From the NCBI GenBank assembly GCA_043228905.1, contig JBHGNT010000005.1, forward strand, positions 14,942,001 to 15,006,000: a stretch of DNA of 64,000 nucleotides, given 5' to 3'. This document shows positions 20,297 to 49,825 of the stretch, one piece after another. A program made the translations under genes and the position numbers. The notes below the pieces were generated by a model that was not told the DNA's origin, did no database searches, and worked only from the letters and a program-made list of their open reading frames with translations. Numbering within the stretch: the stretch's first letter is position 1; every line of letters begins with the position of its first letter. Source of the stretch: Azolla caroliniana. Its lineage: Eukaryota > Plantae > Polypodiophyta.

Positions 20297-23200
20297 TTAT
20301 GTGATTGGTGGTGGGAACAACCATACTGGTGGCGCTAAGCACCATTTAGGTCTTGAATTTTGTATTGTGAGAAAAGGGGTCTTCTTCCAATAGACAATAA
20401 ATTCGAGACGTTGCAACACTGCAACATCTGTCTCACCTTTAATATCCTCATACTGTCCTTTCAAGGTATGTACCATCTCCATCCAGACATTCCGTGTACT
20501 TTCCACTGGATGAATAGTAGTATTACCAAACACCTTAGAACACCTAGCAGTCCAAATAAACCACATTGTGGTGGTGCATAGTAGCTCCCATACCTCTTGC
20601 ATTGTCTTTAACATGTAAGGAGCCTCCATTTGACTTTGTTGCACCGCCATTATCCTTCCTCTTTGAATTCTAATAATCGTGTCATTTGGGCATGCATCAT
20701 ATGGCCACACCACTTGTGCCACTGTGGCCCATACTACCATACCCCACGAAAAACTGCAATCCCTAAACATAAAGGCAAGAACTCGGAACACTCGCCTCCA
20801 AACTTGCTGTGCAGCATGACATTCCCACAAGCAATGTTTCAATGTCTCCATCTGACAACAACAATAGATGCATGCGGTCGGTGCAGCTGATTGTTGCAAC
20901 CATTGGCCAATTGGCAATGCTCTATGTATTACTAACCATTGGAAGACATTTATTTTCATATCTTGCTTCCTTTTCCATAATGTTCCCCAAAACTTTGTTA
21001 GGAATTCCGATGTGATCCCTTGGTGGTTCCAACATTGACTAGCTCGTGGTGTAGTCCTACGTTGAGCTGCCAAAATGTGTCGTCCCATCTTAACTGAATA
21101 CTGAAAAAAACCATACCTTTTTCCCCTACGATCAAACGGATCTTTCCACCAAAATTCTCCCGGATCCCATTGCAACCTTATCAAAGGTTTCTTTTCAAAA
21201 ACTCTCAGTTTCCAATGCTCCTTGACCGCCTCAACTTGTGGGTCGATGAGCCACTTAGATCCGTCATAAGCAAGGACTCTTATTTTAGAAAATGTAGCAT
21301 ATTGCAAGATCTCTGTTTGTATCGTTGCACTACTTATACTGCCATCTTCCTCCACCTCATAGTCTTGACATCGTCCGCAAGACAAATGTCCCCTTACCCC
21401 CACTAGCACTTGAAGCCTCGTAAATGCTCCTTCCCACTTGGGAGGGTTAAAGGACCATATCGTAACGTCAGAGTGCCCCAAAACTGACTGCACTTGGTCC
21501 CACATAATCAGCCCCCCTCTCAAGGAAGACAAGAATTCTGATCTGTCATATATATTCAGAGTATGAAATGATTTCCATGCATCAACGGACGCTCCTGGCC
21601 CTACATCGAGCTTGGCCCAATCCAATCGCGTTCGGGACCCCAACATGTGCCCTGATGGCAAACGCATATTCGGATTCCACACTAAGTTTTGTCTCAAGTA
21701 TTCCTCCTCACATGTTGGTACACCATGTTCCAACCCTTTATGTACATGCTCCCATGCTCGTAGAAGACCATTAAAAAATTTGTCTTCCCAATTCCTAGAC
21801 ATAACATGTTTCTTGTCTGGTATAAAAATCCACCTTATGCTATCAGCCCATAATCCACCCATCGACGGAGCACAACTATACAATCTTTGCATAAGTAATT
21901 GCTTCCAAGGAGCATGTCCTGGTAAAAGGCCACGAATTATTAGTTTTGCTAACAAGGCCATGCATTGGTCTAATGGATCTAAAATCCCCAAACCACCGTA
22001 TTGTTTTGGGGTTATCAATGTACTCCAAGCCACCTTCGCTCTTACATGACTCTTATCTTCCCCAGCCCATATAAAATTCCTAACCAGCCTTCGAATTTGT
22101 CCAATGCACGATTTTGAAAAGATCCAAGATGAGGCTATATACCACACCGTAGATAGTAGCACATGGTTGGCAACTATCACTCTACCGGCCAAAGATAGTT
22201 TAGCATGACTCCACAAGAATAATTTTTTCCTCAAAGTTAATAGTAATGGTGCAGCATGTAATTCTGGAACCAAATCAATCCCAACCTGCACTCCAAGATA
22301 TCGAACCGCAACTCCTCTTTGAGTCCATTGGAAAGTATGATGCGGTGCCCAACAAGGCGGCGGCTCCTTGCTTACCCAAAATGCAACAGTTTTCTCCCAA
22401 TTTAACTTAGCTCCAGACGCTATACAAAACTGTGACAAAGCCCCTTGTACTTGTTGCAAATTCGTTAGAGTCCCATCCACATATAATGCAGTGTCATCTG
22501 CAAATTCCGAGTCCAATATATCCTGTCCATGCATTGGCATTGCCAAACCACGCAAGCCTATAGATTGTGATGATATAAATGCATGCATTGCTTCCGCAAA
22601 CAGAAGGAACAAAAATGGTGCAAGTGGACATCCTTGGCGAACTGATCGAGTAATGTTAAAACGAGGTCCTACTCCACCTGCCAACAACACCTGATTGTGT
22701 GCATTTCTATAAAGACAAGAAACACCTTTAATCCATGCCGTGTTGAAGCCCAAGTGATGCATAGTACCTTCCAAAAAATTCCAGTCAACCCTATCATACG
22801 CTTTCTCAAAATCTAAAAGCAACACGGCTAGATTTTGTTTGTTTTTTACCGCTACTGCAGTAGCCTCCCAAAATGTAAAAACATTATCCATAATACTCCT
22901 TTCCCTCATAAAACCAGTTTGCGATACATGAATTATCTTTGGTAATACCTCTTGTAACCGAGAACTAAGCAACTTTGCAAATAGCTTATAACTAGTATTC
23001 AAGAGGGTGATTAGCCTCCACTTACGAATATCTTCTGAAACTCCTTCTGTTTTAGGTATAAGATAAATAAGCCCCTCAGATAACGACATGGGCATCTCTC
23101 CACTTTCAAACATATGTTGGTAAGCATCTTTTAAGTCTTTCTTCAGTATCCCCCAATATTTCTTGTAGAATTTAGGTGTAAGTCCATCCACTCCAGGACA

Positions 23201-24643
23201 ACTATTGTCCGATAAAGAGTGTAGCGCTTGTTCCAACTCCAATTCTGTAATAGGTGACAACAATGAATCTTGCATTGCTTGAGTAACCTTGGGTTGAATT
23301 TCCGCCCAGACCTTCATTCTATTTTGGCTTATCTCCTCAGAGATAGGCTCTTCTGACAAAAGGGTAGCGTAGAATTTCGTGGCAATTACCCGCACAACAT
23401 TTGGATCCATTTCAAGTTCGCCATTTTCATTCCGCAAACAACAGGTTACATTAGAGACTCTTTTGGGGCCTTTAATATTAAAAAATTGTTTTGTACATCT
23501 ATCCCCAATTTGCGTCCATCTTGAAGCAGAGTTGTGATACCTAAATTGACTACGACATTCTTCCATATGTTGAACTTGTTTTCGGGCTTCTTCAAGATGT
23601 GAAGCTATCCACGCACACTCTGGTCGACCCTGTTGCAATCTTTGCAAAGATATCAATCTTGCCCTCATCCTTCTTTCCTTCTCCAGATATTCCATATATT
23701 CAGATCTTGATTTTAACGCAAAATATTGTGATATCTCCGTCAAAGCACAAGCCACTTTGATTGTAATGGGAGCATCCATATTATCTTTGTTCTGCCAAAT
23801 ATCTGTCACTTGATTATACCATCTATCATGTAACATTACTTTTTCGGGTATCCTAAATCGTATGGACTCCCTTTTCGATTGCCCAAAGGTTCTCAATATA
23901 ACAGGAGCATGATCAGAGAAAGTTGTGCCTGGCATAATAGTGATATTTCCCCCATTTAAGACAAAGGCCTCCCCCACATAAAATCTATCCAATCTTGAAA
24001 GATTGGTTCCAGCTATTCTCCTATCCGAACGTGAGAAACTCAAGGAATTCTGAGATCTATAAACATTAGGCATATGCCATGCATCCAAAATACTCAATTT
24101 CAAACACATCCGTTCCCATACTGCTAATTCCTCCCCATGAATTGTTGAAACACTCCCACCTTTCCTATCCTCTGGGTCCTCAAGCATATTAAAATCCCCT
24201 GCAACACACCAATGAGACACATTTGGTAATGCATTTGTAATTTCACACCAAAAGTGTTTCCTAGCCGATGCATGATTTGGCGCGTAGATATTCAAGTAAC
24301 CCCAAGTTGTATGTAAATCTTGTAATACAATATATTGTGCTCTTCCTGGCACAATGATCTCTTTGCATATAATACTTGATTTCCAATGATGTGCAATTGC
24401 CATACACACCCCGCCTTGTGTACCACTAGTGCCAATAGGCGGGGACCAAAACATCTCCCAACTACCAGGTAATATAGTGCCATAGTTCCTTATTCTTTGC
24501 TCATTCAAATGATGTTCTTGAAACATCATAATGTCCAACGATCCATTCGTGAGACACTTTTGTAATTCCTGCCTTAACCTACCTCTATATCTTCGGTATA
24601 AGGGACCTCCCAAGCCCTGAACATTCCATGTGAGGAGCCTCAT
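20297..24643 (-). CDS. LINE ORF2: APE endonuclease, reverse transcriptase, zf-RVT; 1448 aa, uninterrupted
   Basis: MRLLTWNVQGL, FQEHH, NIYAPN, GDFN, SRLDRFY, SDHAPV (endonuclease); PGVDG, LDFEKAYDRV, RQGCPLAPFLF, FADD, YLGV (RT); CIYC..ETLKHCLWEC. The real ATG is at 24643; the track start is TTG. Confidence 0.95.
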   Translation of the reverse strand: MRLLTWNVQGLGGPLYRRYRGRLRQELQKCLTNGSLDIMMFQEHHLNEQRIRNYGTILPGSWEMFWSPPIGTSGTQGGVCMAIAHHWKSSIICKEIIVPGRAQYIVLQDLHTTWGYLNIYAPNHASARKHFWCEITNALPNVSHWCVAGDFNMLEDPEDRKGGSVSTIHGEELAVWERMCLKLSILDAWHMPNVYRSQNSLSFSRSDRRIAGTNLSRLDRFYVGEAFVLNGGNITIMPGTTFSDHAPVILRTFGQSKRESIRFRIPEKVMLHDRWYNQVTDIWQNKDNMDAPITIKVACALTEISQYFALKSRSEYMEYLEKERRMRARLISLQRLQQGRPECAWIASHLEEARKQVQHMEECRSQFRYHNSASRWTQIGDRCTKQFFNIKGPKRVSNVTCCLRNENGELEMDPNVVRVIATKFYATLLSEEPISEEISQNRMKVWAEIQPKVTQAMQDSLLSPITELELEQALHSLSDNSCPGVDGLTPKFYKKYWGILKKDLKDAYQHMFESGEMPMSLSEGLIYLIPKTEGVSEDIRKWRLITLLNTSYKLFAKLLSSRLQEVLPKIIHVSQTGFMRERSIMDNVFTFWEATAVAVKNKQNLAVLLLDFEKAYDRVDWNFLEGTMHHLGFNTAWIKGVSCLYRNAHNQVLLAGGVGPRFNITRSVRQGCPLAPFLFLLFAEAMHAFISSQSIGLRGLAMPMHGQDILDSEFADDTALYVDGTLTNLQQVQGALSQFCIASGAKLNWEKTVAFWVSKEPPPCWAPHHTFQWTQRGVAVRYLGVQVGIDLVPELHAAPLLLTLRKKLFLWSHAKLSLAGRVIVANHVLLSTVWYIASSWIFSKSCIGQIRRLVRNFIWAGEDKSHVRAKVAWSTLITPKQYGGLGILDPLDQCMALLAKLIIRGLLPGHAPWKQLLMQRLYSCAPSMGGLWADSIRWIFIPDKKHVMSRNWEDKFFNGLLRAWEHVHKGLEHGVPTCEEEYLRQNLVWNPNMRLPSGHMLGSRTRLDWAKLDVGPGASVDAWKSFHTLNIYDRSEFLSSLRGGLIMWDQVQSVLGHSDVTIWSFNPPKWEGAFTRLQVLVGVRGHLSCGRCQDYEVEEDGSISSATIQTEILQYATFSKIRVLAYDGSKWLIDPQVEAVKEHWKLRVFEKKPLIRLQWDPGEFWWKDPFDRRGKRYGFFQYSVKMGRHILAAQRRTTPRASQCWNHQGITSEFLTKFWGTLWKRKQDMKINVFQWLVIHRALPIGQWLQQSAAPTACIYCCCQMETLKHCLWECHAAQQVWRRVFRVLAFMFRDCSFSWGMVVWATVAQVVWPYDACPNDTIIRIQRGRIMAVQQSQMEAPYMLKTMQEVWELLCTTTMWFIWTARCSKVFGNTTIHPVESTRNVWMEMVHTLKGQYEDIKGETDVAVLQRLEFIVYWKKTPFLTIQNSRPKWCLAPPVWLFPPPIT

Positions 24644-25769
24644 CAACAATTGTTAGAGGCCGAACCGGACCCGATCCTACGAGTCTTAGAGGATGGTTCC
24701 ACGGAGCTTACGCCACCCCCATCTCCCATAATCACCATTTGGCTTTTGAGTATGTCACAACCTTCTTTAATGAATCTCCAATGATGATGGGCCCGAGCCT
24801 TGGCTTGGCTTTCCGGCACATCATCTTCATGAATATAAACATATCCAAAATCAAACAATATATCGGAAGGTACATCCAATACAACATGCTTGCGGTTCAT
24901 TGCATCCAAATACGGAACCACTAAACAACTTGCATTCTCTAACCCCCTCAATATTGTTTCCCCCAATTGAGGATTTTGCACGTATTTGGCAAAATACAAA
25001 ACTTGTCCTCTCATGGCCAACATAACATTCGGTTGATTCCATATGTCATTTCTCTCATAACCACATAATGGAAAGGAATAACCGACCAATGAGTTTTCCA
25101 CTTGTTTTTGTCTAAATAAAACATGGACCCTTATTGCATTGGGTTCATGAACATCTTTAACACCCAAATGTTTTGTGAACTCATGCCCAAAGGGGGCTGC
25201 ATAATCAAGTATGGAAAAGCCACCATTTCCGGTATCCTCCTTCAACATCCCACATGTTCTTATTGTGATCGCATTATCCAATTTTTGTGATTGTATTGTT
25301 CTTTTTGAACGAAATGTTTTTGCCTTGACACATCCATCATTTGGTTGGGTGGTACTAACAATTTTCCCCCTTATCTCAGTAGTGGATGTTGGTTGTTCTT
25401 GTGTATCAATTTCTATGTCCAATGCATTATACGCATTAGGGGTGAGACACGTCTCTTGCATAGGCACCGTACGTGTCTTCCATCCATGCTTAACCTTTAC
25501 ATTTATCCATTGAGTGTCTCTTGTTTCCCCTTGTGCCCGTACACCCATACAATCTGAGGCTAGTTTCTCTTGACATTTATCTGCCTCATGCCCTTCTTGT
25601 TTATAATATTCGCAACAACGTTTTTTTCCCCCAATTTAATATTTCTCCTTGGGCAATTCTTGGCTAAATGTCCCATTTGCCGACAATAGAAGCATTGTCC
25701 AGGGAGCCCGGCAAACTCCACCTTTTGTTCTATAAAATCCCTTCTTCATTTGGTAGCCTTACCTTTGTC
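24643..25769 (-). pseudogene. LINE ORF1, C-terminal part (zinc knuckles and C-terminal domain), two frameshifts in homopolymer runs
   Basis: TKVRLPNEEG / DFIEQKVEFAGLPGQCFYCRQMGHLAKNC (CCHC at 25653-25694) / CCEYYKQEGHEADKC, continuing in frame into ORF 24643-25548. Confidence 0.85.
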
Positions 25770-27477: not shown

Positions 27478-27481
27478 ACGT

Positions 27482-28095
27482 TGTCGTGAAGAAAACCGTC
27501 CACAAGCGGAATCGGTGCACAGGAGCGTAGGAACCGGCTCTTCTCGAATGTTGTCCATAGAAGATCCTAGGCAGGTAGATTTAGTGGGTAGGAAGTAAAG
27601 GGGAAACGGCTCCTTCCTTGCCTATAAAAGGAGGGAGACGCGAAGGGGGAGGGCATCGCGGAGAGTCGAGGACGAAGTGCTGTCGGTTTAGGTGCGAAGA
27701 CTTTTCTCTCTCTCTCTCTGGTTCACAAGCTCCATAGCTTCCTTCTGTGCAGGTTTCGGGAGGCTCGCGCTGCTCTGAGGAATGCCCGAGTGCTTCCGGC
27801 AGCACCTCCAACCTACTCCTTCCTTCCTGTGTGTTTACGAACAGGTATCGGCATCTGTTCGCCGGCCTGTTCGGTTGTAATCGACTTCGCGTTTTGTCGT
27901 TTGTCTTTGTTAGTACATACATACCTTCGTGTCTCTCTGTGTCGCTATCCCACTCGCGTCTTTGTGTCGAAGGGCCGTGTCCCTGTGAATCTACTCTCGC
28001 ACGTAGTGGGTCTCTTCTCTTTTCTCTCTTGCTCTTCGGTACAGGACCCCCGAGGTCCCGCCTCATTCCACGCATCCGCGAGGAATACCTCGACA
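27482..28095 (+). repeat. 5' LTR
   Basis: Direct repeat of 33804-34417; TATA-like CCTATAAAAG at about 27621. Confidence 0.97.
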
Positions 28096-28099
28096 TCTT

Positions 28100-28117
28100 T
28101 GGTGAACCCGACATGAA
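28100..28117 (+). promoter_or_regulatory. primer binding site complementary to the tRNA-Trp(CCA) 3' end
   Basis: TGGTGAACCCGACATGAA matches 17/18 of the complement of the plant tRNA-Trp end TTCACGTCGGGTTCACCA (recalled); the second copy (49093-49110) matches 18/18. Confidence 0.85.
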
Positions 28118-28139
28118 GGAGGCGGCAGAAGAGCAGAAG

Positions 28140-30266
28140 ATGAAAGGGTCGGATCTTGCGGAGGCCATGGCTTCGGCCGTGGATCGGATATTGAGTACAC
28201 GCGAGGGCGCCGGCGCCCTCGACAGAGCCATTGAGGCGGTCGTCGGTACGATCGGCCGGTTCAGCGGAAGGGATGCCACGAAGTATTTGGCATCCTACGG
28301 GGCAGAAATGCTGATGCGGGACATTCCGGAAGAGAGGCGTCTTGCCGGGTTTCCTTGAGTGGCGATGCCGAGCATCCATGCGGAGGTGCTCGAGGTGCGG
28401 GCGGAGAGCCGTACCTGGGAGGAGTTCGAAGGTCGACTCCTGGAAAAATACGGGCTGGACGACGCGCTCCGGCTTTCGAAACGAGACTTCATGGAATGGG
28501 TGGAGTCCCCCGGCAAGGGAAGAAACGCGTTGGCACTCCTCCGGGAGTTCGAAGAACGCTTTGCGCGCCTTTCGGCGCTTGACCGAACCGTTCTGGATAC
28601 GAGCCGGGTCCTACTGTTCGTCAAGTCGGTGGACGAGCGAGACAGGGATCAAGTCGGCTCCTTGCTGGAAACTGAAGACGGGCTGACAACCGACTGGGCT
28701 GCGGTTAAGAGAGTCTGTGGCCATTTTGACAAATGGCGAGAATGGGCTGACAACGGGGCGGCTGGTGCGGGCTCTGTCACAGCAAGGAGACTTGAACTGG
28801 CACCGCAAGTGCAAAGGGAAGAAACCCGGGAATGGCTCGAAACCGGTCCGGCTTCGACCGGCATGGTCAATGGCTCGTCCGGAGGAGCAGCGCTGGAGGA
28901 GTTGACGCGGGCGATAAAGGATCTCCAGATCGCCCAGGCTCGAAGGGAAGGCGGTGAACCAGCTCGGGACCGACGGTCGGCAGCGGGGAACAGGTGCATG
29001 TGGTGCGACGAGGTCGGCCACATTCCGAAGGACTGCGGCGATTTCGCAGAGGCGTTGAGAAACAGGGTGGTGTACCTGTGGGAAGGCCGGGTGCACGCTG
29101 GCGACACTAGGAGGGCCCTGAACCGAAACGACGGGCGAGGAGGTATGAAGAGACTGATGGAAGAGGCAGTGGCCCGACACGTGGAGGCCATCCACTACTC
29201 GGCGTCGGCCGGTATTCGGGTCGGGGGCAGCGAAGCCCGAAAGGAGAGCAAAGACGGTTTCTGGTCGGCAATGCTGGAAGGCCTCGCCGACGCACGGCTG
29301 AGGAAAGATGAAACGGACCGCGCTGAGAGACGGGTCCGGGAAATAATCGGGTGGAGCGATCCGGTCGAGGAGAAGACGGGCTTCGTAGAGGCCTCCTGCC
29401 GGAACTACGAGGCTCTGGTAGAAGAAAAACGAGTGGGGAAAGCCGGAGCGGCCGGGCCCTCACAACGGTACGAGACCCGATCCGGGCAACGACGGAACGA
29501 TGCCGGTGGGTCCGGCTCACGAGATAACCCCAGGAAGGGCGGGTACCGACTGGGGACGGAAATAGAAAGGACTACGGACCTACGAAAGGTCCTAGAAGAA
29601 CGGATCCTCGACAGCAAAGTGGAGCTGTCATTACGGGAGGTGCTAGGGATCGCCAAGAAGGAGTTCCACGACTCCATTGTAGACTTGGTGAAACGGAAGA
29701 GACTGTTGATGGAGACGGAACCGGAAAGACCGGTGGAGGTGCGGACGACGCACATCGACAACTCGGCGCTGGAAGATGAGTGGGCGGAGAGCCACTATTC
29801 GAGGCCACACTGGGCCCGAGCGACCACGGAGACCCCGGTAAAGATCAGAGATGTTCAGGAACCGGTGGTGGCGTTGGTGGACCACGGTTCGGAAATAAAC
29901 CTAATGTCCATGGACTTCTATAAGAAGGGAAAATGGCCGATCAACACCAGGCACGGGTGGAAGATACGGGCGGTGACGCGCGCCACCGAGGAACTGCACG
30001 GGGCCTGCCCGAATGTGCGAGTAAAGATCGGCGACGTCGAGATTGACCAACACTTCTTCGTACAGGAGACGTCCTCGCATCCGGTCATATTAGGGGAACC
30101 ATACATCACGGCGGCGAGAATGGAGACCAAGGTGCTGGACAACGGTTCGGCCTACGCTAGGGTCAAAAGCCAGGACGGGCGCCATTCGGTGCAATTTCTG
30201 ACGGTGCAGCCGAACCACGAGAGAAACCGCGAATCCCTCGGTGGCGAGAGCCGGGAGGATTTTTAG
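28140..30266 (+). pseudogene. gag: gag-protease with one premature TGA at 28356-28358
   Basis: CCHC knuckle CMWCDEVGHIPKDC; protease-like ALVDHGSEINLM...VILGEPYI. The stop aligns with Arg (CGA) in the sister element. Confidence 0.9.
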
Positions 30267-30323
30267 AGAGGGCTGCCAAGGCGTGGGGCCGAGACAGCCC
30301 AGACACTCGGAAAAGACCCCACG
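30257..30323 (+). promoter_or_regulatory. candidate programmed -1 ribosomal frameshift signal (slippery heptamer plus pseudoknot)
   Basis: G GAT TTT TAG ends gag-PR; the -1 frame is open from 30257 into pol. Stems: GGGCTG/CAGCCC and CGTGGGG-CCGAG / CTCGG..CCCCACG. Confidence 0.75.
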
Positions 30324-33300
30324 ACTGTACGATAGGTAGGAAATTTTGCTTCTCCAACAAAGGGGGGTGTATGATAGTCGGCATCGTCGGCCGAGAAAAG
30401 ACAAGGGCGGAAGTGCGACTTCGAGCGTGCGGAGTTCTCGGCCCGGACGAGGAAATCAGTGGAGCCGTGGAGGCGGTCTCCTTCGATGACACCTTGGGAA
30501 TGCTGAGGAAGGTAGTCGGAGAAGACCTTAACGAAGACCGGACGATACCGGTATGTTCCGAAGAGATGTACGAAGTCATCGCGAGCTTCAGTCAGGGGCT
30601 CGGGTCGGATCGGACGGCCCGAGTTAGCACGAAGTACAAGAATGTGGACCGGAAGGTAAGGCCAGTCGCGGCACCCTTACCGGAGGGCAGCGAGTCCCGA
30701 ATCAGAGGGGTTGCGTCGGACCCCAGTTTACGAGATCCGGCTTGCATAGGACACACCTTCACCGACAGGACGCTCCGGGAGCTCAAGATCGGTGGGGGCG
30801 GGTTCCTACTGCCAGCGGAGGAAGACCGGTTTCGGAGAATGCTCGGAAGGCACGGGAAAGCCTTCGCATTCTCACCGGAAGAGATCGGGTGCGTAGACCC
30901 GACGATCGTGGAGCCGATGGTGATATTCACGGTACTGCATGTGCCGTGGAATCTCAAGCCGATTCCGGTACTGAGAGCTCACATCCCGAAGTTGATGGAG
31001 CTATTGAGGCAGAAAGTAGATATGGGCATTCTCGAACCGTCGAGTGCCCCATACTCGAACCGATGGTTTACAGTACCAAAGAAAAACGGAACGATGCGCT
31101 TCATTCAAGACTTGCAGTCGGTCAACAGAGTGACCATTCGGAACGCAGGAATCGGACCGACCATAGACGAGTTCGCGGAGGCCTTCGCCGGGAGGTCGAT
31201 TTACTCGGTCGGTGATCTGTACTCGGGGTACGACCAGTTCCAGCTAGCCGTGGAGAGCAGAGACATTACTACGATGCGAACTCCCCTCGGCCTAGTGCGA
31301 ATGTGTACCCTGCCACAAGGAGGGACCAACTCGGTGGCTCACATGGTGAATGCAATGAACAAGGTACTAAGGGATTGCATCCCGGACATCACCATGCCAT
31401 TTCTAGACGACATCCCGATCAAGGGGTGCCCGGTGGAAGAGAAGGACGAGACAGTCGGGCCGGACGGGTGCCGGCGATTCGTGGCAGCACACATCGACGA
31501 CTGCGAGAAGGCGCTACAAAGGCTAGAGGATGCGAGGCTCACCTTCTCCGGGGAGAAATCGGCCTTCGGGCAATCAGAAATCCAGGTGGTCGGACACCTA
31601 TGTGGACCATATGGCCGGAAGCCGTCTCCGGCAAAAGTAGAAGCCATCTCTGCGATGAAGACCGACTGTAGCTCGGTTACAGAAGTTCGGAGGTTCCTGG
31701 GGGCATGCGCATTCTACCACATATGGATCTTGCACTACGCCCACGTTGCGGAGCCGCTATACGGGTTGCTGAAGAAGGGGCGGAAATTCGAGTGGCGAGA
31801 CGAGCACACGGAGTCGGTCCGGAAGCTGAAGGAAGCTCTTGCGGCAGCACCGGCGCTCCGGAAGGCTGTCTACGAGAAGGGTACCCCGGTATACATAACG
31901 GTGGACATGAGTCCGACCGGGATCGGATGGGTCGTCAACCAAGAAGACAAGGACGACATTCGGTTCCCGATCCGATTCGGCGCGAAGGTCCTCAGTGAGC
32001 GACAACGAGGGTACGCCCAGGTTAAACGCGAACTCTGGGGTATCGTTTCGGCAGTAAAGGCCGACAAAGACTACCTGATCAGGACAGAAGTGATTATCGA
32101 GACGGATTGCCTGCCAATTCTCGGCATGGTTTCCGGATGTGCGACACCGGACCTGGCAATGCTCAGGTGGATAGCGTACATCAAGTCCCTGGATCCGGAA
32201 ATACGACACATTTCCGGAAAGGACAACGCCATGGCCGACATGCTTTCGAGGGCGAGGTTTGATGACGAGGAAGGCATGGTTTCGGAGGATGAAGAAGTCG
32301 GCATGGACTTCTTCGAGGCGGCGTACGTGACGACCGATGGGACGAGCACTCCGGCACTTAACGACTTCGACGAGAGCAAGTACGACGGCGAGTGGCTCCA
32401 GATCGGTGGATTCTTGAGGACAATGACGCCGGATGCGTCATGGACGAAGGACGAGGCCAAGCGGATCCGGAAGAAAGCTTACCGATTCTTTCTCCGGGAT
32501 GGATACTTATGGAAGCACCCGAAGAAGAGGGACGACGTTCCGCTCCGGGTGGTGGCGATGAAGGAAGAACAGGAGGAGCTGCTGACGGCCTACCATGACA
32601 GCCCTTGGGCCGGACACCGTGGAACCTGGGCCACGTTCGAGAAGATAAAGGGGAAGTACTGGTGGCCGGGACTGTACCGGGACGTGCATCGATTCGTGAC
32701 AACTTGCGAGAGCTGTCAGATGCACTCCGTAGTCCGACACCGGGACGAACTTCACCCTACGTACCCTCCGACCATCCACTTCAAATGGATGGTAGACCTG
32801 GTAACGATGCCGATAGGAGTAGGAAAGATGCGGTATCTGGTCCTAGCTCGGGAAGATCTGACGAACCAGGTTGAAGGTCGGGCCCTTCAGAACAAAACGA
32901 CTGCAGCCGTATGTCGGTTCCTGCTCGAGGACGTAATATGCCGGTACGGGTGCGTCGGGAAGATCGTGGCTGATCGCGGGGAGTTGGACGCCGAAGAGGC
33001 CGAGGAGCTGTTCGACCGGTTAGGGGTCAAGCTCTCGCTTACCACTGCGTACAATCTGGAGGCAAATGGGAAGGTGGAGCGCGGACACGGACCGATCGTC
33101 AAGGCGTTAGTTCGGGCATGCGGAGGGCAAGTCGGGAACTGGCCACGGCTGCTGCCTTACGCGTTGTGGGCTGACCGAACTACGCACAGTTCGGTAACCG
33201 GATTCATGCCGGCAGAGCTCATGTTTGGGCAGAAGCCGGTCATGCCGATGGAACGTACGATCTCCTCATGGGCAACCGTGGACTGGAGAGACGAGATGAG

Positions 33301-33811
33301 CCGGGAGGAACTGTTGGCGGCGCGCATACGACAGCTCGAGCGAAGACCGGAGGACGTGGAGCAGGCTGCGGAAAAGCTTCGGGAAGCAAGGATGAGGAAC
33401 AAAGCCCGGTTCGACCGAACGCACCGGCTCCGACCGAAGAAGATCGAGGAAGGCGACTGGGTGCTAGTCTATGATAGCAACCTTGACAACCAGCACCGAG
33501 CGACACGGAAGTTCGCAAGAAGGTGGTTCGGGCCTTACGTGGTACAAAGCGCCAACGACAACGGGACGTACCATCTGGCGGAACTCGACGGTACGAGAAT
33601 GGCGATACCGGTAGCGGGGAAGCGGATCAAAGCGTTCAAGAAGCGTCACGACGACGAGCCGGATCCGGTTGACCTGAACCGCGACGACGAACGATCCGAA
33701 ACCGAGGAAGAACCGGCGAGCGGGGAAGGAAGGCTGGACCGGTTTTCTCCATCCCAACTCAATTTGGCGCATGCCGGTGGATGCGCGGTTAGGTGGGGGC
33801 GGATGTCGTGA
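30257..33811 (+). CDS. pol: pol (RT-RNaseH-integrase) in the -1 frame relative to gag; first ATG at 30371
   Basis: DLYSGYDQ, LPQGGTNS, FLDD (RT); YAQVKRELWG, ETDC, NAMADMLSR (RNase H); H..H..CESC, MVDL, ADRGE, GKVERGH (integrase). No chromodomain. Confidence 0.95.
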   Translation, partial: GFLERAAKAWGRDSPDTRKRPHDCTIGRKFCFSNKGGCMIVGIVGREKTRAEVRLRACGVLGPDEEISGAVEAVSFDDTLGMLRKVVGEDLNEDRTIPVCSEEMYEVIASFSQGLGSDRTARVSTKYKNVDRKVRPVAAPLPEGSESRIRGVASDPSLRDPACIGHTFTDRTLRELKIGGGGFLLPAEEDRFRRMLGRHGKAFAFSPEEIGCVDPTIVEPMVIFTVLHVPWNLKPIPVLRAHIPKLMELLRQKVDMGILEPSSAPYSNRWFTVPKKNGTMRFIQDLQSVNRVTIRNAGIGPTIDEFAEAFAGRSIYSVGDLYSGYDQFQLAVESRDITTMRTPLGLVRMCTLPQGGTNSVAHMVNAMNKVLRDCIPDITMPFLDDIPIKGCPVEEKDETVGPDGCRRFVAAHIDDCEKALQRLEDARLTFSGEKSAFGQSEIQVVGHLCGPYGRKPSPAKVEAISAMKTDCSSVTEVRRFLGACAFYHIWILHYAHVAEPLYGLLKKGRKFEWRDEHTESVRKLKEALAAAPALRKAVYEKGTPVYITVDMSPTGIGWVVNQEDKDDIRFPIRFGAKVLSERQRGYAQVKRELWGIVSAVKADKDYLIRTEVIIETDCLPILGMVSGCATPDLAMLRWIAYIKSLDPEIRHISGKDNAMADMLSRARFDDEEGMVSEDEEVGMDFFEAAYVTTDGTSTPALNDFDESKYDGEWLQIGGFLRTMTPDASWTKDEAKRIRKKAYRFFLRDGYLWKHPKKRDDVPLRVVAMKEEQEELLTAYHDSPWAGHRGTWATFEKIKGKYWWPGLYRDVHRFVTTCESCQMHSVVRHRDELHPTYPPTIHFKWMVDLVTMPIGVGKMRYLVLAREDLTNQVEGRALQNKTTAAVCRFLLEDVICRYGCVGKIVADRGELDAEEAEELFDRLGVKLSLTTAYNLEANGKVERGHGPIVKALVRACGGQVGNWPRLLPYALWADRTTHSSVTGFMPAELMFGQKPVMPMERTISSWATVDWRDEMSREELLAARIRQLERRPEDVEQAAEKLREARMRNKARFDRTHRLRPKKIEEGDWVLVYDSNLDNQHRATRKFARRWFGPYVVQSANDNGTYHLAELDGTRMAIPVAGKRIKAFKKRHDDEPDPVDLNRDDERSETEEEPASGEGRLDRFSPSQLNLAHAGGCAVRWGRMS

Positions 33812-34417
33812 AGAAAACCGTCCACAAGCGGAATCGGTGCACAGGAGCGTAGGAACCGGCTCTTCTCGAATGTTGTCCATAGAAGATCCTAGGCAGGTAG
33901 ATTTAGTGGGTAGGAAGTAAAGGGGAAATGGCTCCTTCCTTGCCTATAAAAGGAGGGAGACGCAAAGGGGGAGGGCATCGCGGAGAGTCGAGGACGAAGT
34001 GCTGTCGGTTTAGGTGCGAAGGCTTTTCTCTCTCTCTCTCTGGTTCGCAAGCTCCATAGCTTCCTTCTGTGCAGGTTTCAGGAGGCTCGCGCTGCTCTGA
34101 GGAATGCCCGAGTGCTTCCGGCAGCACCTCCAACCTACTCCTTCCTTCCTGTGTGTTTACGAACAAGTATCGGCATTTGTTCGCTGGCCTGTTCGGTTGT
34201 AATCGACTTCGCGTTTTGTCGTTTGTCTTTGTTAGTACATACATACCTTCGTGTCTCTCTGTGTCGCTGTCCCACTCGCGTCTTTGTGTCGAAGGGCCGT
34301 GTCCCTGTGAATCTACTCTCGCATGTAGTGGGTCTCTTCTCTTTTCTCTCTTGCTCTTCGGTACAGGACCCCTGAGGTCCCGCCTCATTCCACGCATCCG
34401 CGAGGAATACCTCGACA
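33804..34417 (+). repeat. 3' LTR
   Basis: Follows the PPT AGGTGGGGGCGGA. Confidence 0.97.
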
Positions 34418-34421
34418 ACGT

Positions 34422-43678: not shown

Positions 43679-44864
43679 GCCTTCCACACTCCACTTTTGA
43701 CTACTGTGTCGGCCTTGGCCGGTCCCAAACTGTCAGCTTTCGGTTCCCTCCTTTTTGACTTGCGCTCGCCTCTCCCTAAGCTCGTTCTGACCTCTAGGTA
43801 GGTCGTTTGCCGAGACCCCTTTCGTACGCATGCTTGCACCTTTGGCCCTTCAATCGATTGTATGCACGCCCTTCATTCCACCCTTTTCCTTCTCCCGGCA
43901 GCTCGTTTCCTTGGTTGGCCTAGATTCACCGCTCCGAGCTCATCCGGCCTCTCCACCCGGTTAGCCGGTCCCGGTTTCCGGATTCACCCCTTCTCTAGTC
44001 GGGGTAGACATCTCGAATGCTGGTCACGACCCGTCCTTCGTTCTGTGTGGCGCGGATTTCGTTCCTCTTGACCGATTGTCGGAGGTTGCACCTTGCCCGG
44101 GCCCGTTGTCGTGTTGTTACGCGCGTGCGTGGAGAACAAGGCGGGACCACTGGGGTCTTGGACCGAGGAATAGGTGAGGAAAAGAGAGAGAGAGATGCTC
44201 ACTCACGTATAGACAAAGAAGCGCACGGGGACGCGTCACAACAACACAGGAGACGCGAGTTGAGAACACTAGGGTGTGTATGTAAAAATATAAGCATGTA
44301 TTTGTATGTATGCAGACAACTCGAACGGTTACAGCCGACCAAGTCGGCGAGGTGGGTGCCGACGCCTGATCACCCACGCACACAAGAGAGCAAGATGGAG
44401 ATTCTGCCGGAAGCACACGGGCGTTCCACGGAGCAAAATCAGCCTCCTGAGAGCCTGCGCAAAAGAAAGCTATGGAGAACAACAGAGAAGAAGAGCTCGA
44501 TCCCAGTCCGACAACACTTCGTTCCCTCTAGCGCGCGATGTCCCCTCTCTCCCGTCTCCCTCTCTTTTATAGCTCAAGGAGGGAGGCCGTTTCACTCGTT
44601 TACATCACATTAATTCTCTGTCCTTTCGGACAGAGATACTCCTCGATTTACCTTATAGAATATTGCTACCTAGGATTTAACCCTTGTGCCTAACTATCTA
44701 CTATACGACAAGGGACATGCCCATGTGTAAGGGCCGGTTCACACACACTATACATGGTTTGCGCCTGGGGACGGTTTTCTTCACGACATCCGCCCCCACC
44801 TAACCACGCATCCACCGGTATGCGCCAAAATTGGGTTCCTATGGGAGAAAACCGATCCTTGCTT

Positions 44865-47690
44865 TTATTCCTCGTTTACCGGTTCATCCTCCGCCTCGGG
44901 CTGCTCGTCGTCGCTGTCCATGCCCCCTAGCTCCGGCTCCCCATCGTGCCATTTCTTGAACGCTTTGATCCTCTTCCCCGCTACCGGTATCGCCATCCCA
45001 TTGCCGTTGGCGCCTGTTACTACGTAAGGCCCGAACCACCTCCTCGCAAACTTCCGCGTGGCCCTGTGTTGATTGTCGAGGCTGCTGTCGTAGACTAGCA
45101 CCCAGTCGCCTTCCTCGATCTTCCTTGGCCTGGACCGGTGTGTTCGGTCGAACCGGGCTTTGTTCCTTATCCTCGCTACTCGAAGTTTCTCTGCGGCTCG
45201 CTCTACGTCCTCCAGCCTCCGCTCGAGCTGTCGAATCCGCGCCGCCAACAATTCCTCCCGGCTCATCTCATCCCTCCAGTCCACCGTGGCCCACGAGGAG
45301 ATCGTTCGCTCTATTGGCATGATCGGCTTCTGTCCGAACATCAGCTCGGTCGGCATGAACCCGGTTACCGAACTGTGCGTAGTCCGGTCCGCCCACAAGG
45401 CATAAGGTAGCAGCCGTGGCCAGTCCCCGACTCAGCCTCCGCACGCTCGTACTAGCGCATTGACAATTGGCCCGTGTCCGCGCTCCACCTTCCCGTTCGC
45501 CTCCGGATTGTACGCTGTGGTGAGCGAAATTTTGACTCCTAGCCAGCCGAACAGCTCTTCAGCCTCTTCTACGTCCAGCTCACCACGGTCAGCCACACTC
45601 TTCCCTACGCACCCGTATCGGCATACTACGTCCTCAATCAAAAACCGGCACACGGCTGCCGTCGTCTTGTTCTGCAGGGCTCGACCTTCAACCTGGTTCG
45701 TTAGATCTTCCCGAGCCAGCACCAGATACCGCATCTGTCCTACCCCCATTGGCATCGTCACCAAATCCACCATCCACTTGAAGTGGACGGGCGGAGGGTA
45801 GGTCGGGTGAAGCTCGTCCCGATGTCGGATCATGGAGTGCACCTGACAGCTTTCGCAAGTCTTCACGAACCGATGCACGTCCCAGTATAGTCCCGGCCAC
45901 CAGTACTTCCCCTTTAGCTTTTCGAACGTGGCCCACGTTCCACGGTGTCCAGCCCACGGGCTATCGTGGTACGCCGCCAGCAAATCCTCTTGTTCCTCCT
46001 TCTTTGCCACCACTCGGAGCGGGATGCCGTTCCTCTTCTTCGGGTGCTTCCATATGTATCTGTCTCGGAGAAAGAATCGGTAGGATTTCTTCCGAATCCG
46101 GTTGGCCTCATCCGTTGTCCATGCCGCGTCCGACGTCATTGTTTTCAGGAACCCGCCGATCTGCAGCCACTCCCCGTCGTACTTGCTCTCGTCGAAATCG
46201 TTAAGCGTTGGAGAGCATACCCTGCCGGTTGTCATGTTAGCCGCCTCGAAGAAGTCCACGCCGACTTCCTTGTCTTCGGAAACCATGCCGCCGTCATTTT
46301 CGAACCTCGCCCTTGAAAGCATGTCGGCCATGGAGTTGTCTTTCCCGGAAATGTGTCGTATTTCTGGATTCAGGGACTTGATGTACGCTATCCACCTGAG
46401 CATTGCCAGGTCCGGCGTCACGCATCCGGAAACCATGCCAAGGATCGGTAGGCAGTCCGTTTCGATAATTACCTCTGCCCCGATCAGGTAGTCTTTATCG
46501 GCCTTTACCGCCGAAACGATACCCCAGAGCTCGCGTTTAACCTGGGCGTATCCTCGCTGTCGCTCGCTGAGGACCTTCGCGCCGAACCGGATCGGGGAAC
46601 GCATGCCGTTTTCGTCCTCTTGGTTGACGACCCATCCGATCCCGATCGGACTCGTGTCTACCGTTATGTAAATTGGAGTGCTCTTTCCGTAGACAGCCTT
46701 CCGGAGCACCGGAGCCGCGGCAAGTGCTTCCGTCATCTTCCGGACAGACTCCGTATGCTCACCTCTCCACTCAAATTTTCGCCCCTTTTTCAGCAACCCG
46801 TACAATGGCTCCGCGATGTGAGCGTAATGCGGGATCCATATGTGGTAGAACTCGCACGCTCCCAAGAACCTCTGAACCTCCGTGACCAAGCTACTGTCGT
46901 TCTTCATTGCAGAGATGGCTTCTACCTTAGCTGGAGACGGTTTCCGGCCATACGACCCGCATAGGTGTCCGACGACCATGATCTGTGATTGCCCGAAGGC
47001 CGACTTTCCCCCGGAGAAGGTGAGCCTCGTGCTCTCCAACCTCTGCAGCACCTTCTCGCAGTCATCGATGTGCGTCGCCACGAATTTCCGGCATCCGTCA
47101 GGTCCGATCGTCTCGTCCTTTTCCTCCACCGCGCATCCCTTGATCGGGACGTCGTCCAAAAACGGCATGGTGATGTCCGGGATACAATCCCTTAGCACTT
47201 TGTTCATTGCGTTCACCATGTGAGCCACCGAGTTCGTCCCTCCTTGCGGCAGGGTACACATCCGTACTAGGCCGAGAGGAGTTCGCATTGTCGTGATGTC
47301 TCTGCTCTCTAAGGCAAGCTGGAACTGATCGTACCCCGAGTAGAGATCACCGACCAAGTAAATCGACCTTCTGGCGAAGGCCTCCGTGAACTCATCTATT
47401 GTCGGTCCAATTCCCGCGTTTCGAATGGTCACCTTGTTGACCGGCTGCAGGTCTTGAATAAAGCACAGCGTGCCGTCCTTCTTCGGCACGGTAAACCACC
47501 GATTCGAGTATGGAGCACTCGACAGTTCGAGGATTCCCATCTCGACCTTTTTCTTTAACAGCTCCATTAGCTTCGGGATGTGAGCTTTGGGTACTGGAAT
47601 TGGTTTGAGACTCCACGGCACATGCGGTACCGTGAATATCACCATCGGTTCCACGACTGTCGAGTCTACGCACCCGATCTCCTCCGGTGA
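44865..47690 (-). pseudogene. pol: pol (RT-RNaseH-INT), N-terminally deleted, stop at 45432
   Basis: ORFs 45432-47654 and 44865-45398 are collinear with pol 30371-33811. Confidence 0.93.
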
Positions 47691-49071
47691 GGTTGCTGGT
47701 TACAACGGCCTCATTCCGTCTTTGCCCGAATCGAGTCTCATATCGCTGCGAGGGCCCGACCCCTCCGATTTTCCCTACTCGCTTGTCCTCCACCAGAGCC
47801 TCGTAGTTTTGACAAGCGGCTTCGACGAAGCCCGTCTTTTCTTCCACCGGGTCACTCCACCCGGTTACCTCCCGGACCCGTTTTTCTGCGCGGTCCACCT
47901 CTTCTTTCCTTAGCCGTGCGCCGGCGAGGCCTTCCAGCATCGTCGGCCAGAACCCAGCTTTGTTCGTCTTCGGGGCCTCGCCACCTCCGACCCGAATACC
48001 AGCTGACGCCAAGTAGTGGACGGTCTCCGCGTGACGAGCCGCCGCCTCCTCCATCAGCCTTTTCATACCCCCTCGCCCGACGTTCAGGTTCAGGGCCCTT
48101 CGGGTCTCGTTGGCGTGCAACCGACCGTTCCACAGGTACACCATGTTGCTTCTCAACGCCTCGGCGAAGTCCCCGCAGTCCTTTCGGATGTGCCCAACTG
48201 CGTCACACCACATGCACCTGTTTTTAGCCAGAAGTCGTCGGTCACAGGCCTGTTCGCCACCATCCCTCCGTGCCTGGGCGATCTGGAGATCCTTTACCAT
48301 CCGCGTAAGCTCCTCCAGAGCTTCTCCCCCGGACGAGCCCTTGACCATGCCGGTTGAAGCCGATCCGGTCTCGAGCCAATGTCGGGTCTCTTCCCTTCGC
48401 GTTGGTGGTGTTGGCTCAAGCTTCCTTGCTGCGATAGAGCCCACCCCTGTCGATCCTTTGTCAACCCATTCCCGCCGTTTGTCGAAACGGCCACAGACCC
48501 TTTTCACCATGGCCCAGTCAGCCGTCAGCCTGTCATCAATCTCCAATAGGAGGCCTACCTGCTCCCGATCCCGCTCGTCAACCGACTTAACAAACAATAG
48601 GACACGGCTTGTGTCCAGAACGACCCGATCAAGCACCGAGAGGCGCGCGAAGCGTTCCTCAAACTCCCGAAGGAGCACTGACGCGTTCCTTCCTTTGTCG
48701 GGGGTCTCCACCCACTCCATGAAGTCCCGCTTTGAAAGTCGAAGCGCATCTTCAAGCTCGTATCTTTCGAGGAGCCGACCTTCGAACTCCTCCCAGGTCT
48801 GGCTCTCAGCCCGTACCTCGAGCACCTCCGTATGGATGCCCGACATCGCCACTCGAGGGAATCCGGCCAGACGCCTCTCTTCCGGAATGTCCCTCATTAC
48901 CATCTCAGCCCGGTAGGACGCCAAGTAGCTCGTGGCATCCTTCCCACTAAACCGGCCGATCGTACCGACAACCGCGTCGATAGCCCTATCAAGGGCACCG
49001 GAGCCTTCGCGAGCACTCACTATACGGTCCACAGCCGAAGCCATGGCTTTTGCAAGGTCCGACCCCCTCAT
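47691..49071 (-). pseudogene. gag: gag, truncated before the protease
   Basis: MRGSDLAKAMASAVDRI...CMWCDAVGHIRKDC; homology to element 1 ends after RRNEA. Confidence 0.92.
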
Positions 49072-49825
49072 CTTCTACTCCTCTGCCGCCTGTTCACGTC
49101 GGGTTCACCAAATATGTCGCGTTGTTACGCGCGTGCGTGGAGAACAAGGCGGGACCACTGGGGTCTTGGACCGAGGAATAGGTGAGGAAAAGAGAGAGAG
49201 AGACGCTCACTCACGTATAGACAAAGAAGTGCACGGGGACGCGTCACAACAACACAGGAGACGCGAGTTGAGAACACTAGAGTGTGTATGTAAATATAAG
49301 CATGTATTTGTATGTATGCAGACGACAAGAACGGTTACAGCTGACCAAGTCGGCGAGGTGGGTGCCGACGCCTGATCACCCACGCACACAAGAGAGCAAG
49401 ATGGAGATTCTGCCGGAAGCACACAAGCGTTCCACAGAGCAGAATCAGCCTCCTGAGAGCCTGCGCAAAAGAAAGCTATGGAGAACGACAGAGAAGAAGA
49501 GCTTGGTCCCAGTCTGACAGCACTTCGTTCCCTCTAGCGTGCGATGTCCCCTCTCCCCCGTCTCCCTCTCTTTTATAGCTCAAGGAGGGAGGCCGTTTCA
49601 CTCGTTTACATCACATTAATTCTCTGTCCTTTCGGACAGAGATACTCCTCGATTTACCTTATAGAATATTGCTACCTAGGATTTAACCCTTGTGCCTACC
49701 TATCTACTATACGACAAGGGACATGCCCACGTGTAAGGGCCGGTTCACACACACTATACACGATTTGTGCCTGGGGACGGTTTTCTTCATGACACCGTTT
49801 CAATCCGCCTTTCCGCATGCCAAAG

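Follow-up and report, generated by a model that had tools for sequence, protein, structure and literature searches.

A conserved candidate -1 frameshift cassette between protease and RT in a Phygy-like retrotransposon lineage of seed-free plants

We identified a conserved RNA cassette, consisting of a slippery heptamer, a stop codon and a downstream structured region, at the boundary between the protease and RT reading frames of an LTR retrotransposon. The element is located in a 64,000-nucleotide stretch of Azolla caroliniana DNA (the window). A sequence-only reading of the window had proposed a virus-like -1 frameshift cassette at this place, and the proposal is supported by the reading frames, by conservation and by covariation in stem 1 of the structure. 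Alignments of family copies and relatives reveal the frame arrangement, its conservation, the stem 1 covariation and an open linker that is under selection. Programmed -1 ribosomal frameshifting from gag-protease into RT-RNase H-integrase is, to judge from these sequences, the probable mechanism (roughly 0.85). The mechanism is of a known kind; what is new is its place after the protease in a plant retrotransposon lineage, together with a probable -2 branch.

The host element

The cassette lies within a 6,936-bp LTR retrotransposon (27482–34417) of Phygy-like Ty3/gypsy type. The features of Ty3/gypsy elements are all present, namely paired LTRs, a TSD, a PBS and the domain order GAG-PR-RT-RH-INT. 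The parts of the element, and a second element in the window, are as follows.

27478–27481, + strand: 5' TSD ACGT (NCGN type), with the same 4-mer at 34418–34421
27482–28095, + strand: 5' LTR, 614 bp, TG...CA, differing from the 3' LTR at 11 of 614 positions
28100–28117, + strand: PBS, complementary to a host tRNA-Trp(CCA) gene at 17 of 18 bases
28113–30266, + strand: ORF1, gag-like region and aspartic protease, ending in ...EDF-stop
28995–29036, + strand: CCHC knuckle in the gag part of ORF1, which also contains DUF4100
29874–29894, + strand: protease motif LVDHGSE
30257–30263, + strand: slippery heptamer G_GAU_UUU
30264–30269, + strand: 6-nt spacer, beginning with the ORF1 stop UAG
30270–30277, + strand: predicted pseudoknot, stem 1, 5' strand
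30282–30288, + strand: predicted pseudoknot, stem 2, 5' strand (GGGG core 30285–30288)
30293–30300, + strand: predicted pseudoknot, stem 1, 3' strand
30317–30323, + strand: predicted pseudoknot, stem 2, 3' strand
30257–30628, + strand: trans-frame linker, 124 codons in the pol frame, from the heptamer to the conserved TKYK at the start of the RT region
30629–33811, + strand: pol, with RT (31073–31597), RNase H (31793–32182) and integrase zinc domain (32561–32725)
33804–34417, + strand: 3' LTR, with a short G-rich tract just before it
44107–49800 (upper bound approximate), - strand: second element, of a sister subfamily

The protease in ORF1 gives a weak Pfam match (E 0.012), and relatives carry PF13650/PF13975. 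The active site of retropepsins is usually D-T/S-G; here it is D-H-G, as in most relatives, and D-T-G is found in some Riccia relatives. ORF1 presumably starts at one of the ATGs at 28113, 28140 and 28167. The first of these in-frame codons overlaps the end of the PBS, and at the other end of the element pol finishes inside the 3' LTR. In the window copy ORF1 is broken by a premature stop (28356–28358), so this copy is unable to make the full product. Pfam scans and the list of ORFs revealed no chromodomain, second RNase H or extra ORF in the element.

Phygy was defined from P. patens only, with a length of 7.7–10.0 kb and an ORF organisation entered as 'ND' (Neumann et al. 2019, PMC6317226). 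As in the Phygy entries consulted in that paper, our element has a 4-bp NCGN TSD (ACGT, one element checked), a tRNA-Trp PBS, neither chromodomain nor extra RNase H, and a coding region that fills the interior. It differs in its length of 6,936 bp, compared with a published range that comes from one species (PMC6317226). Because the features fit Phygy apart from length, we have filed the element as Phygy-like.

The second element has lost its protease and cassette to an internal deletion, which leaves gag fused to RT in a different frame. It was rejected as a comparison for the junction, which is deleted, and served only to find its subfamily. A LINE-like element (20297–25635, - strand) contains an open endonuclease-RT ORF of 1,451 codons, beside whose start an upstream ORF ends. 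In the host genome, matches to the tRNA-Trp 3' end form clusters at C8:17796786-17823370 (spacing about 1.2 kb) and C16:4989496-5105657, suggesting tandem tRNA arrays.

Frame arrangement and slippery site

Five host-genome searches and one metagenome scan yielded 220 loci, of which 213 cover the end of the protease and 192 also the RT. The sequence-only reading had named a continuous gag-pol frame in most copies, or copies without the heptamer and stems, as results that would tell against it. None of the 192 loci is continuous, and heptamer and stems are both conserved, with covariation. Among the first 200 loci, 172 have both protease end and RT, and in 155 of these RT is in the -1 frame (24/28, 19/24, 55/60, 28/30 and 29/30 in the individual sets). 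Two of the 17 exceptions belong to a +1/-2 subfamily described below; the remainder we read as indel-damaged copies, several of which show single-base length changes.

In the window, GGATTTT (30257–30263) is followed by TAG (30264–30266), which ends gag-protease. Pol occupies the -1 frame in an ORF (30161–33811), with no stop between the heptamer and ATG 30371 or between that codon and RT. Both features are as originally described, and the 6-nt gap reported between heptamer and stem 1 (30264–30269) is within the canonical 5–9 nt. The heptamer sits in the ORF1 frame as X_XXY_YYZ if GGA is counted as XXX, an exception that is tolerated in -1 heptamers according to the sections consulted of PMC5009743. 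It is present in all 30 of the closest copies (the best 30 of 40 listed). Among 27 representatives, its columns are 93–100% conserved compared with 30–74% for the 24 bases upstream, and a stop (TAG, TAA or TGA) is found directly 3' of it in 24. The U run ends in C in some families (G_GAU_UUC). In loci L122 and L139 and in proteins P0025 and P0027–P0033, the ORF1 stop falls within stem 1, four codons downstream of the heptamer, which indicates that a directly following stop is not required. ORF1 homologues with intact ends (35–89% identity) terminate in xDF-stop, or carry xDF four residues before the stop.

A degenerate pattern consisting of heptamer, stop, start of stem 1 and GGGG has 3,454 exact matches in the host genome and none for a reversed control; since the pattern was written from copies, this is a count of copies rather than an independent test. 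Families whose protease identity is as low as 66% also show the pattern.

The named relatives are sequences of Riccia, Physcomitrium and Adiantum, which places the lineage in seed-free plants. Database matches also indicate relatives in basidiomycetes, whose gag-protease is a protein by itself. Physcomitrium proteins are about 70% identical to locus L138, and a P. patens gene model, which carries no Phygy label, nests with this locus at 100/98 in an unrooted RT tree (L081, L093, L103, L122 and P0047 were left out of the tree). The protease motif is present in four of 102 newly listed matches of a pol search, these being three Riccia gene models and P0169. The latter is a distant relative, represented by one sequence on one contig, in which gag, protease, linker and RT occupy a single frame. 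This arrangement counts against the frameshift reading; P0169 may be a mutated copy, or may represent a lineage with one ORF.

The predicted pseudoknot

The structured region was analysed in 28 rows aligned by MAFFT with no structure input. These comprise 20 of 23 cluster representatives, with the window standing for its cluster, and eight hand-picked members; L058, L082 and L152, which are recombined or broken by indels, were left out. Stem 1 had been described as six base pairs, GGGCTG with CAGCCC. The complementarity is as described, but the stem really consists of eight base pairs (30270–30277 with 30293–30300), with one C-A mismatch in the window copy. Over the 28 rows, 95.5% of stem 1 cells are paired compared with 23–45% in slid controls, although conservation in this region is inflated because it is also protein-coding. 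Six of the eight pairs show two-sided changes, with 22 such cells. A covariation analysis over family copies, which had been put forward as a check, bears stem 1 out: none of 500 shuffles reaches its score, which is inflated by kinship among the rows, and the pair-type measures, which are least affected, are reached by 0–1 of 500. Two stem 1 positions that pair with each other (L061 1955 and 1975) show paired changes in polyA reads from a related organism. Stem 1 is demonstrated by these data.

Stem 2 had been drawn as a 12-bp bulged helix formed by CGTGGGG-CCGAG. This sequence is indeed complementary to its partner, but across families only the GUGGGG/CCCCAC core is conserved. The CCGAG/CTCGG extension (30289–30293 with 30306–30310) overlaps stem 1 and pairs in only 30.7% of cells, and the 12-bp form was rejected for that reason. 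In nearly every row stem 2 is a GGGG/CCCC helix of 4–7 bp, once its register has been fitted, which also underlies the pair counts, and loop 3 is 11–16 nt in 27 of the 28 rows. Compared with shuffled downstream sequence, p < 0.05 is reached in 13 of 28 rows taken alone (median p 0.056). An Rfam scan of the cassette gave no match near threshold, with two chance matches (E 3–5.5).

An H-type pseudoknot, in which stem 2 is added to stem 1, is the likely structure, with moderate support for stem 2. Frameshifting might instead be stimulated by the stem 1 hairpin alone or by a fold switch, or the structure might serve RNA dimerisation or packaging as well. Such a reading suits the observations that stem 2 has only 4–5 bp in about half of the rows, that its statistics are moderate, and that ViennaRNA gives competing folds for the window copy, the MFE structure being stem 1 alone or a long alternative helix. 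However, the loop GGGG and a partner 11–16 nt beyond stem 1 are found in nearly all families, and in the most divergent rows (L138, with GCGAGA/UCUCGC, L139, L122 and L107) the sequence of stem 2 has been replaced and its pairing kept. We regard such a reading as unlikely.

Proposed mechanism, linker and alternative explanations

Under programmed -1 frameshifting, most ribosomes would stop at the UAG and release Gag-PR. The pseudoknot would hold up a minority of them, GAU then occupying the P site and UUU the A site. On a slip of one base back, the A-site tRNA-Phe would re-pair perfectly and the P-site tRNA-Asp partly. The slipped ribosomes would make Gag-PR-linker-RT-RH-INT, resulting in a high ratio of Gag-PR to Pol.

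The linker that these ribosomes would translate was compared in 27 representatives of loci that reach RT (L087, L095 and L140, with no RT or with a linker indel, were left out). It is 120–155 codons long and contains no stops in the pol frame, compared with 236 and 342 in the other two frames. Among the first 200 loci, unselected, it is open in 139 of the 146 with a recognisable heptamer. The pol frame opens exactly at the heptamer, and stops on its upstream side come to within 13 nt of the ORF1 stop. Values of dN/dS in ten unsaturated pairs are 0.18–0.61, indicating purifying selection, and the first Met may be anywhere from codon 7 to codon 112. The open linker, the purifying selection and the scattered first Met together speak against both an intron and a fixed internal start. 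The linker has no Pfam match, yet motifs such as EE-x-SF-x-DT persist across families; it is possibly an unnamed small domain ahead of RT.

Splicing of the kind found in Ogre, where an intron would remove the ORF1 stop from some transcripts and join protease to RT in frame, has precedent in that Ogre splices at the same position (sections consulted of PMC6317226). In addition, public gene models from Riccia and Physcomitrium fuse PR to RT with the junction missing. These models are cut at differing points, as predicted introns placed over a frameshift would be, and we read their skipping of the junction, from the protein models alone, as predicted introns bridging a frameshift. An intron needs neither an open linker nor purifying selection in the pol frame. 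Moreover, polyA reads from a related organism (three runs of one study, mostly 80–95% alike, about 12% of each run) contain no splice joints over the site at a depth of about 8–21. Splicing here, which the sequence-only reading had offered as grounds for its rejection, was thus not seen, although the reads are weak evidence because both strands are covered and DNA is possibly included; the many single-contig joints of a further run, X4, which is probably DNA, were excluded. We consider splicing improbable.

We give slightly less credence still to a separately produced pol, whether from an mRNA of its own or through ribosomes that reinitiate or initiate internally at a downstream AUG, with the structure acting as an initiation or termination signal. 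A separate start is presumed for TART(-B1) in the sections consulted of PMC5009743, and ATG 30371 is retained by all 30 closest copies. This codon is ACG in 14 of 18 copies of the sister subfamily, however, and was rejected as the pol start because it is not conserved. The first Met positions and the exact opening of the pol frame also speak against a separate start, and the polyA reads show no pile-up of read starts at the same depth of about 8–21. Slippage of the polymerase on the U run, which would add or remove a base in some transcripts, seems the most remote of the explanations considered. In its favour, the invariant core of the site is a run of 4–6 U, but this is a short run, has C as its last base in some families and keeps a fixed ribosomal spacing from the structure; no indel at the run was detected in the RNA reads at a 5% threshold and low depth.

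A branch with pol in the +1/-2 frame

A variant subfamily is represented by metagenome loci L107 (2496–2560) and L114 and by 20 host-genome loci (L201–L220). Its cassette has AG_GUU_UUU, a 5-nt rather than a 6-nt spacer, and an ORF1 stop two codons on, and both stems are kept. In 21 of 22 copies no stop interrupts the -2 (equivalent to +1) frame over 60 codons, whereas the -1 frame contains 3–5 stops. RT is in the +1/-2 frame in 14 of the 20 host-genome copies; the other six we attribute to later indels. When the host genome was searched with a variant pattern, 95 of the 100 matches were of the AG_GUU_UUU/5-nt type. The three members included in the unrooted RT tree form one clade (100/100) among the -1 families, and dN/dS between variant members is 0.03 for protease, 0.18 for the linker and 0.07 for RT, consistent with purifying selection. 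Given this monophyly and selection, the arrangement is old and functional rather than a chance indel.

The distance from the post-shift A-site codon to stem 1 is 7 nt both for a -2 slip in the variant and for a -1 slip elsewhere, and on this ground we prefer a -2 to a +1 slip. A -2 shift is the likeliest reading for the branch and somewhat favoured by the sequences; a +1 slip is conceivable but doubtful. Lin et al. 2012 found -2 shifting to be optimal at spacers 1–2 nt shorter than for -1 (PMC3458567, sections consulted), and the variant spacer is 1 nt shorter than that of its -1 relatives. The engineered, structure-driven -2 shifts in the same sections used U6A, and a change to the first base removed most of the shifting. 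G_GUU_UUU is the -2/-1 site of PRRSV, and as at the PRRSV nsp2TF site most variant copies have a stop right after a -1 slip. The PRRSV stimulator, however, is a protein complex of nsp1-beta and PCBP at a C-rich motif with a 10-nt spacer, and no pseudoknot is involved according to the sections consulted of PMC6675879, whereas the variant has an inherited pseudoknot as its candidate stimulator. The need for U6 (PMC3458567) and the protein stimulator of PRRSV (PMC6675879) would both weigh against -2 shifting in the variant branch. The chances seem evenly balanced that one inherited pseudoknot directs -1 shifting in most families and -2 shifting in one branch, by way of a 1-nt shorter spacer and G_GUU_UUU.

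Relation to known systems

The gag-pro/pol shift of alpharetroviruses, likewise a -1 shift into RT that follows the protease, has the protease within gag. The present element has the organisation GAG-PROT overlapping RT-RH-INT, a type absent for plant lineages from the table in supplement 3 of PMC6317226. In that supplement, Tcn1, Selgy and some SIRE elements are entered with frames that overlap at the gag/protease boundary, and Ogre and Retand with a GAG-PROT separated from RT-RH-INT by a spacer/intron or stop codon. A break after the protease, which had been called unusual, is therefore shared with Ogre (an intron) and Retand (mostly a single stop codon); overlapping frames are given for neither, and it is the overlapping-frame split that is unlisted for plants (PMC6317226). 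Unlike the junction in Ogre, the PROT-RT linker of our element is open and selected, and no splice joints were seen.

G_GAU_UUU drives -1 frameshifting of PEMV in plant extracts (PMC4737148, sections consulted). In umbraviruses and dianthoviruses such as PEMV and RCNMV, the shift is stimulated by a large bulged hairpin that pairs with the 3' end over a kilobase range (sections of PMC4737148 and PMC5009743), whereas the candidate stimulator of the element is a compact, local, predicted pseudoknot in a retroelement. The -1 shift after the protease into RT resembles that at pro/pol in MMTV and HTLV; those viruses use two shifts, while the element has its protease in frame with gag and would use one (PMC5009743, sections consulted).

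Atkins et al. 2016 report that a 2003 survey (Gao et al.) turned up separate frames in just two kinds of plant element, +1 in each case (PMC5009743), and plant elements are mostly single-ORF according to Oberlin et al. 2017 (PMC5580714). Plant retroelements appear without -1 recoding in the sections consulted of both papers. The sections consulted of PMC7466625 and PMC2864245 contain no statement on frameshifting, nor does PMC7466625 use ORF terms, and we found no earlier report of the cassette in the Phygy-like lineage in the open literature, a scope outside which lie the 2003 survey itself and Repbase-type annotations.

Implications

The conserved cassette, present in thousands of copies, fills a gap on the organisation of Phygy-type elements, which was left undetermined in a plant-wide survey. 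It would also explain the introns that gene predictors seem to have placed at the PR-RT junction. The families supply about twenty natural sequence variants of one pseudoknot. Because sister families have 6-nt and 5-nt spacers, the determinant of -1 versus -2 shifting is testable with natural sequences and plant ribosomes. If a single inherited pseudoknot does direct both, the variant branch would be a case of -2 shifting driven by structure in nature, and evolution would have put the mRNA-tension model to the test.
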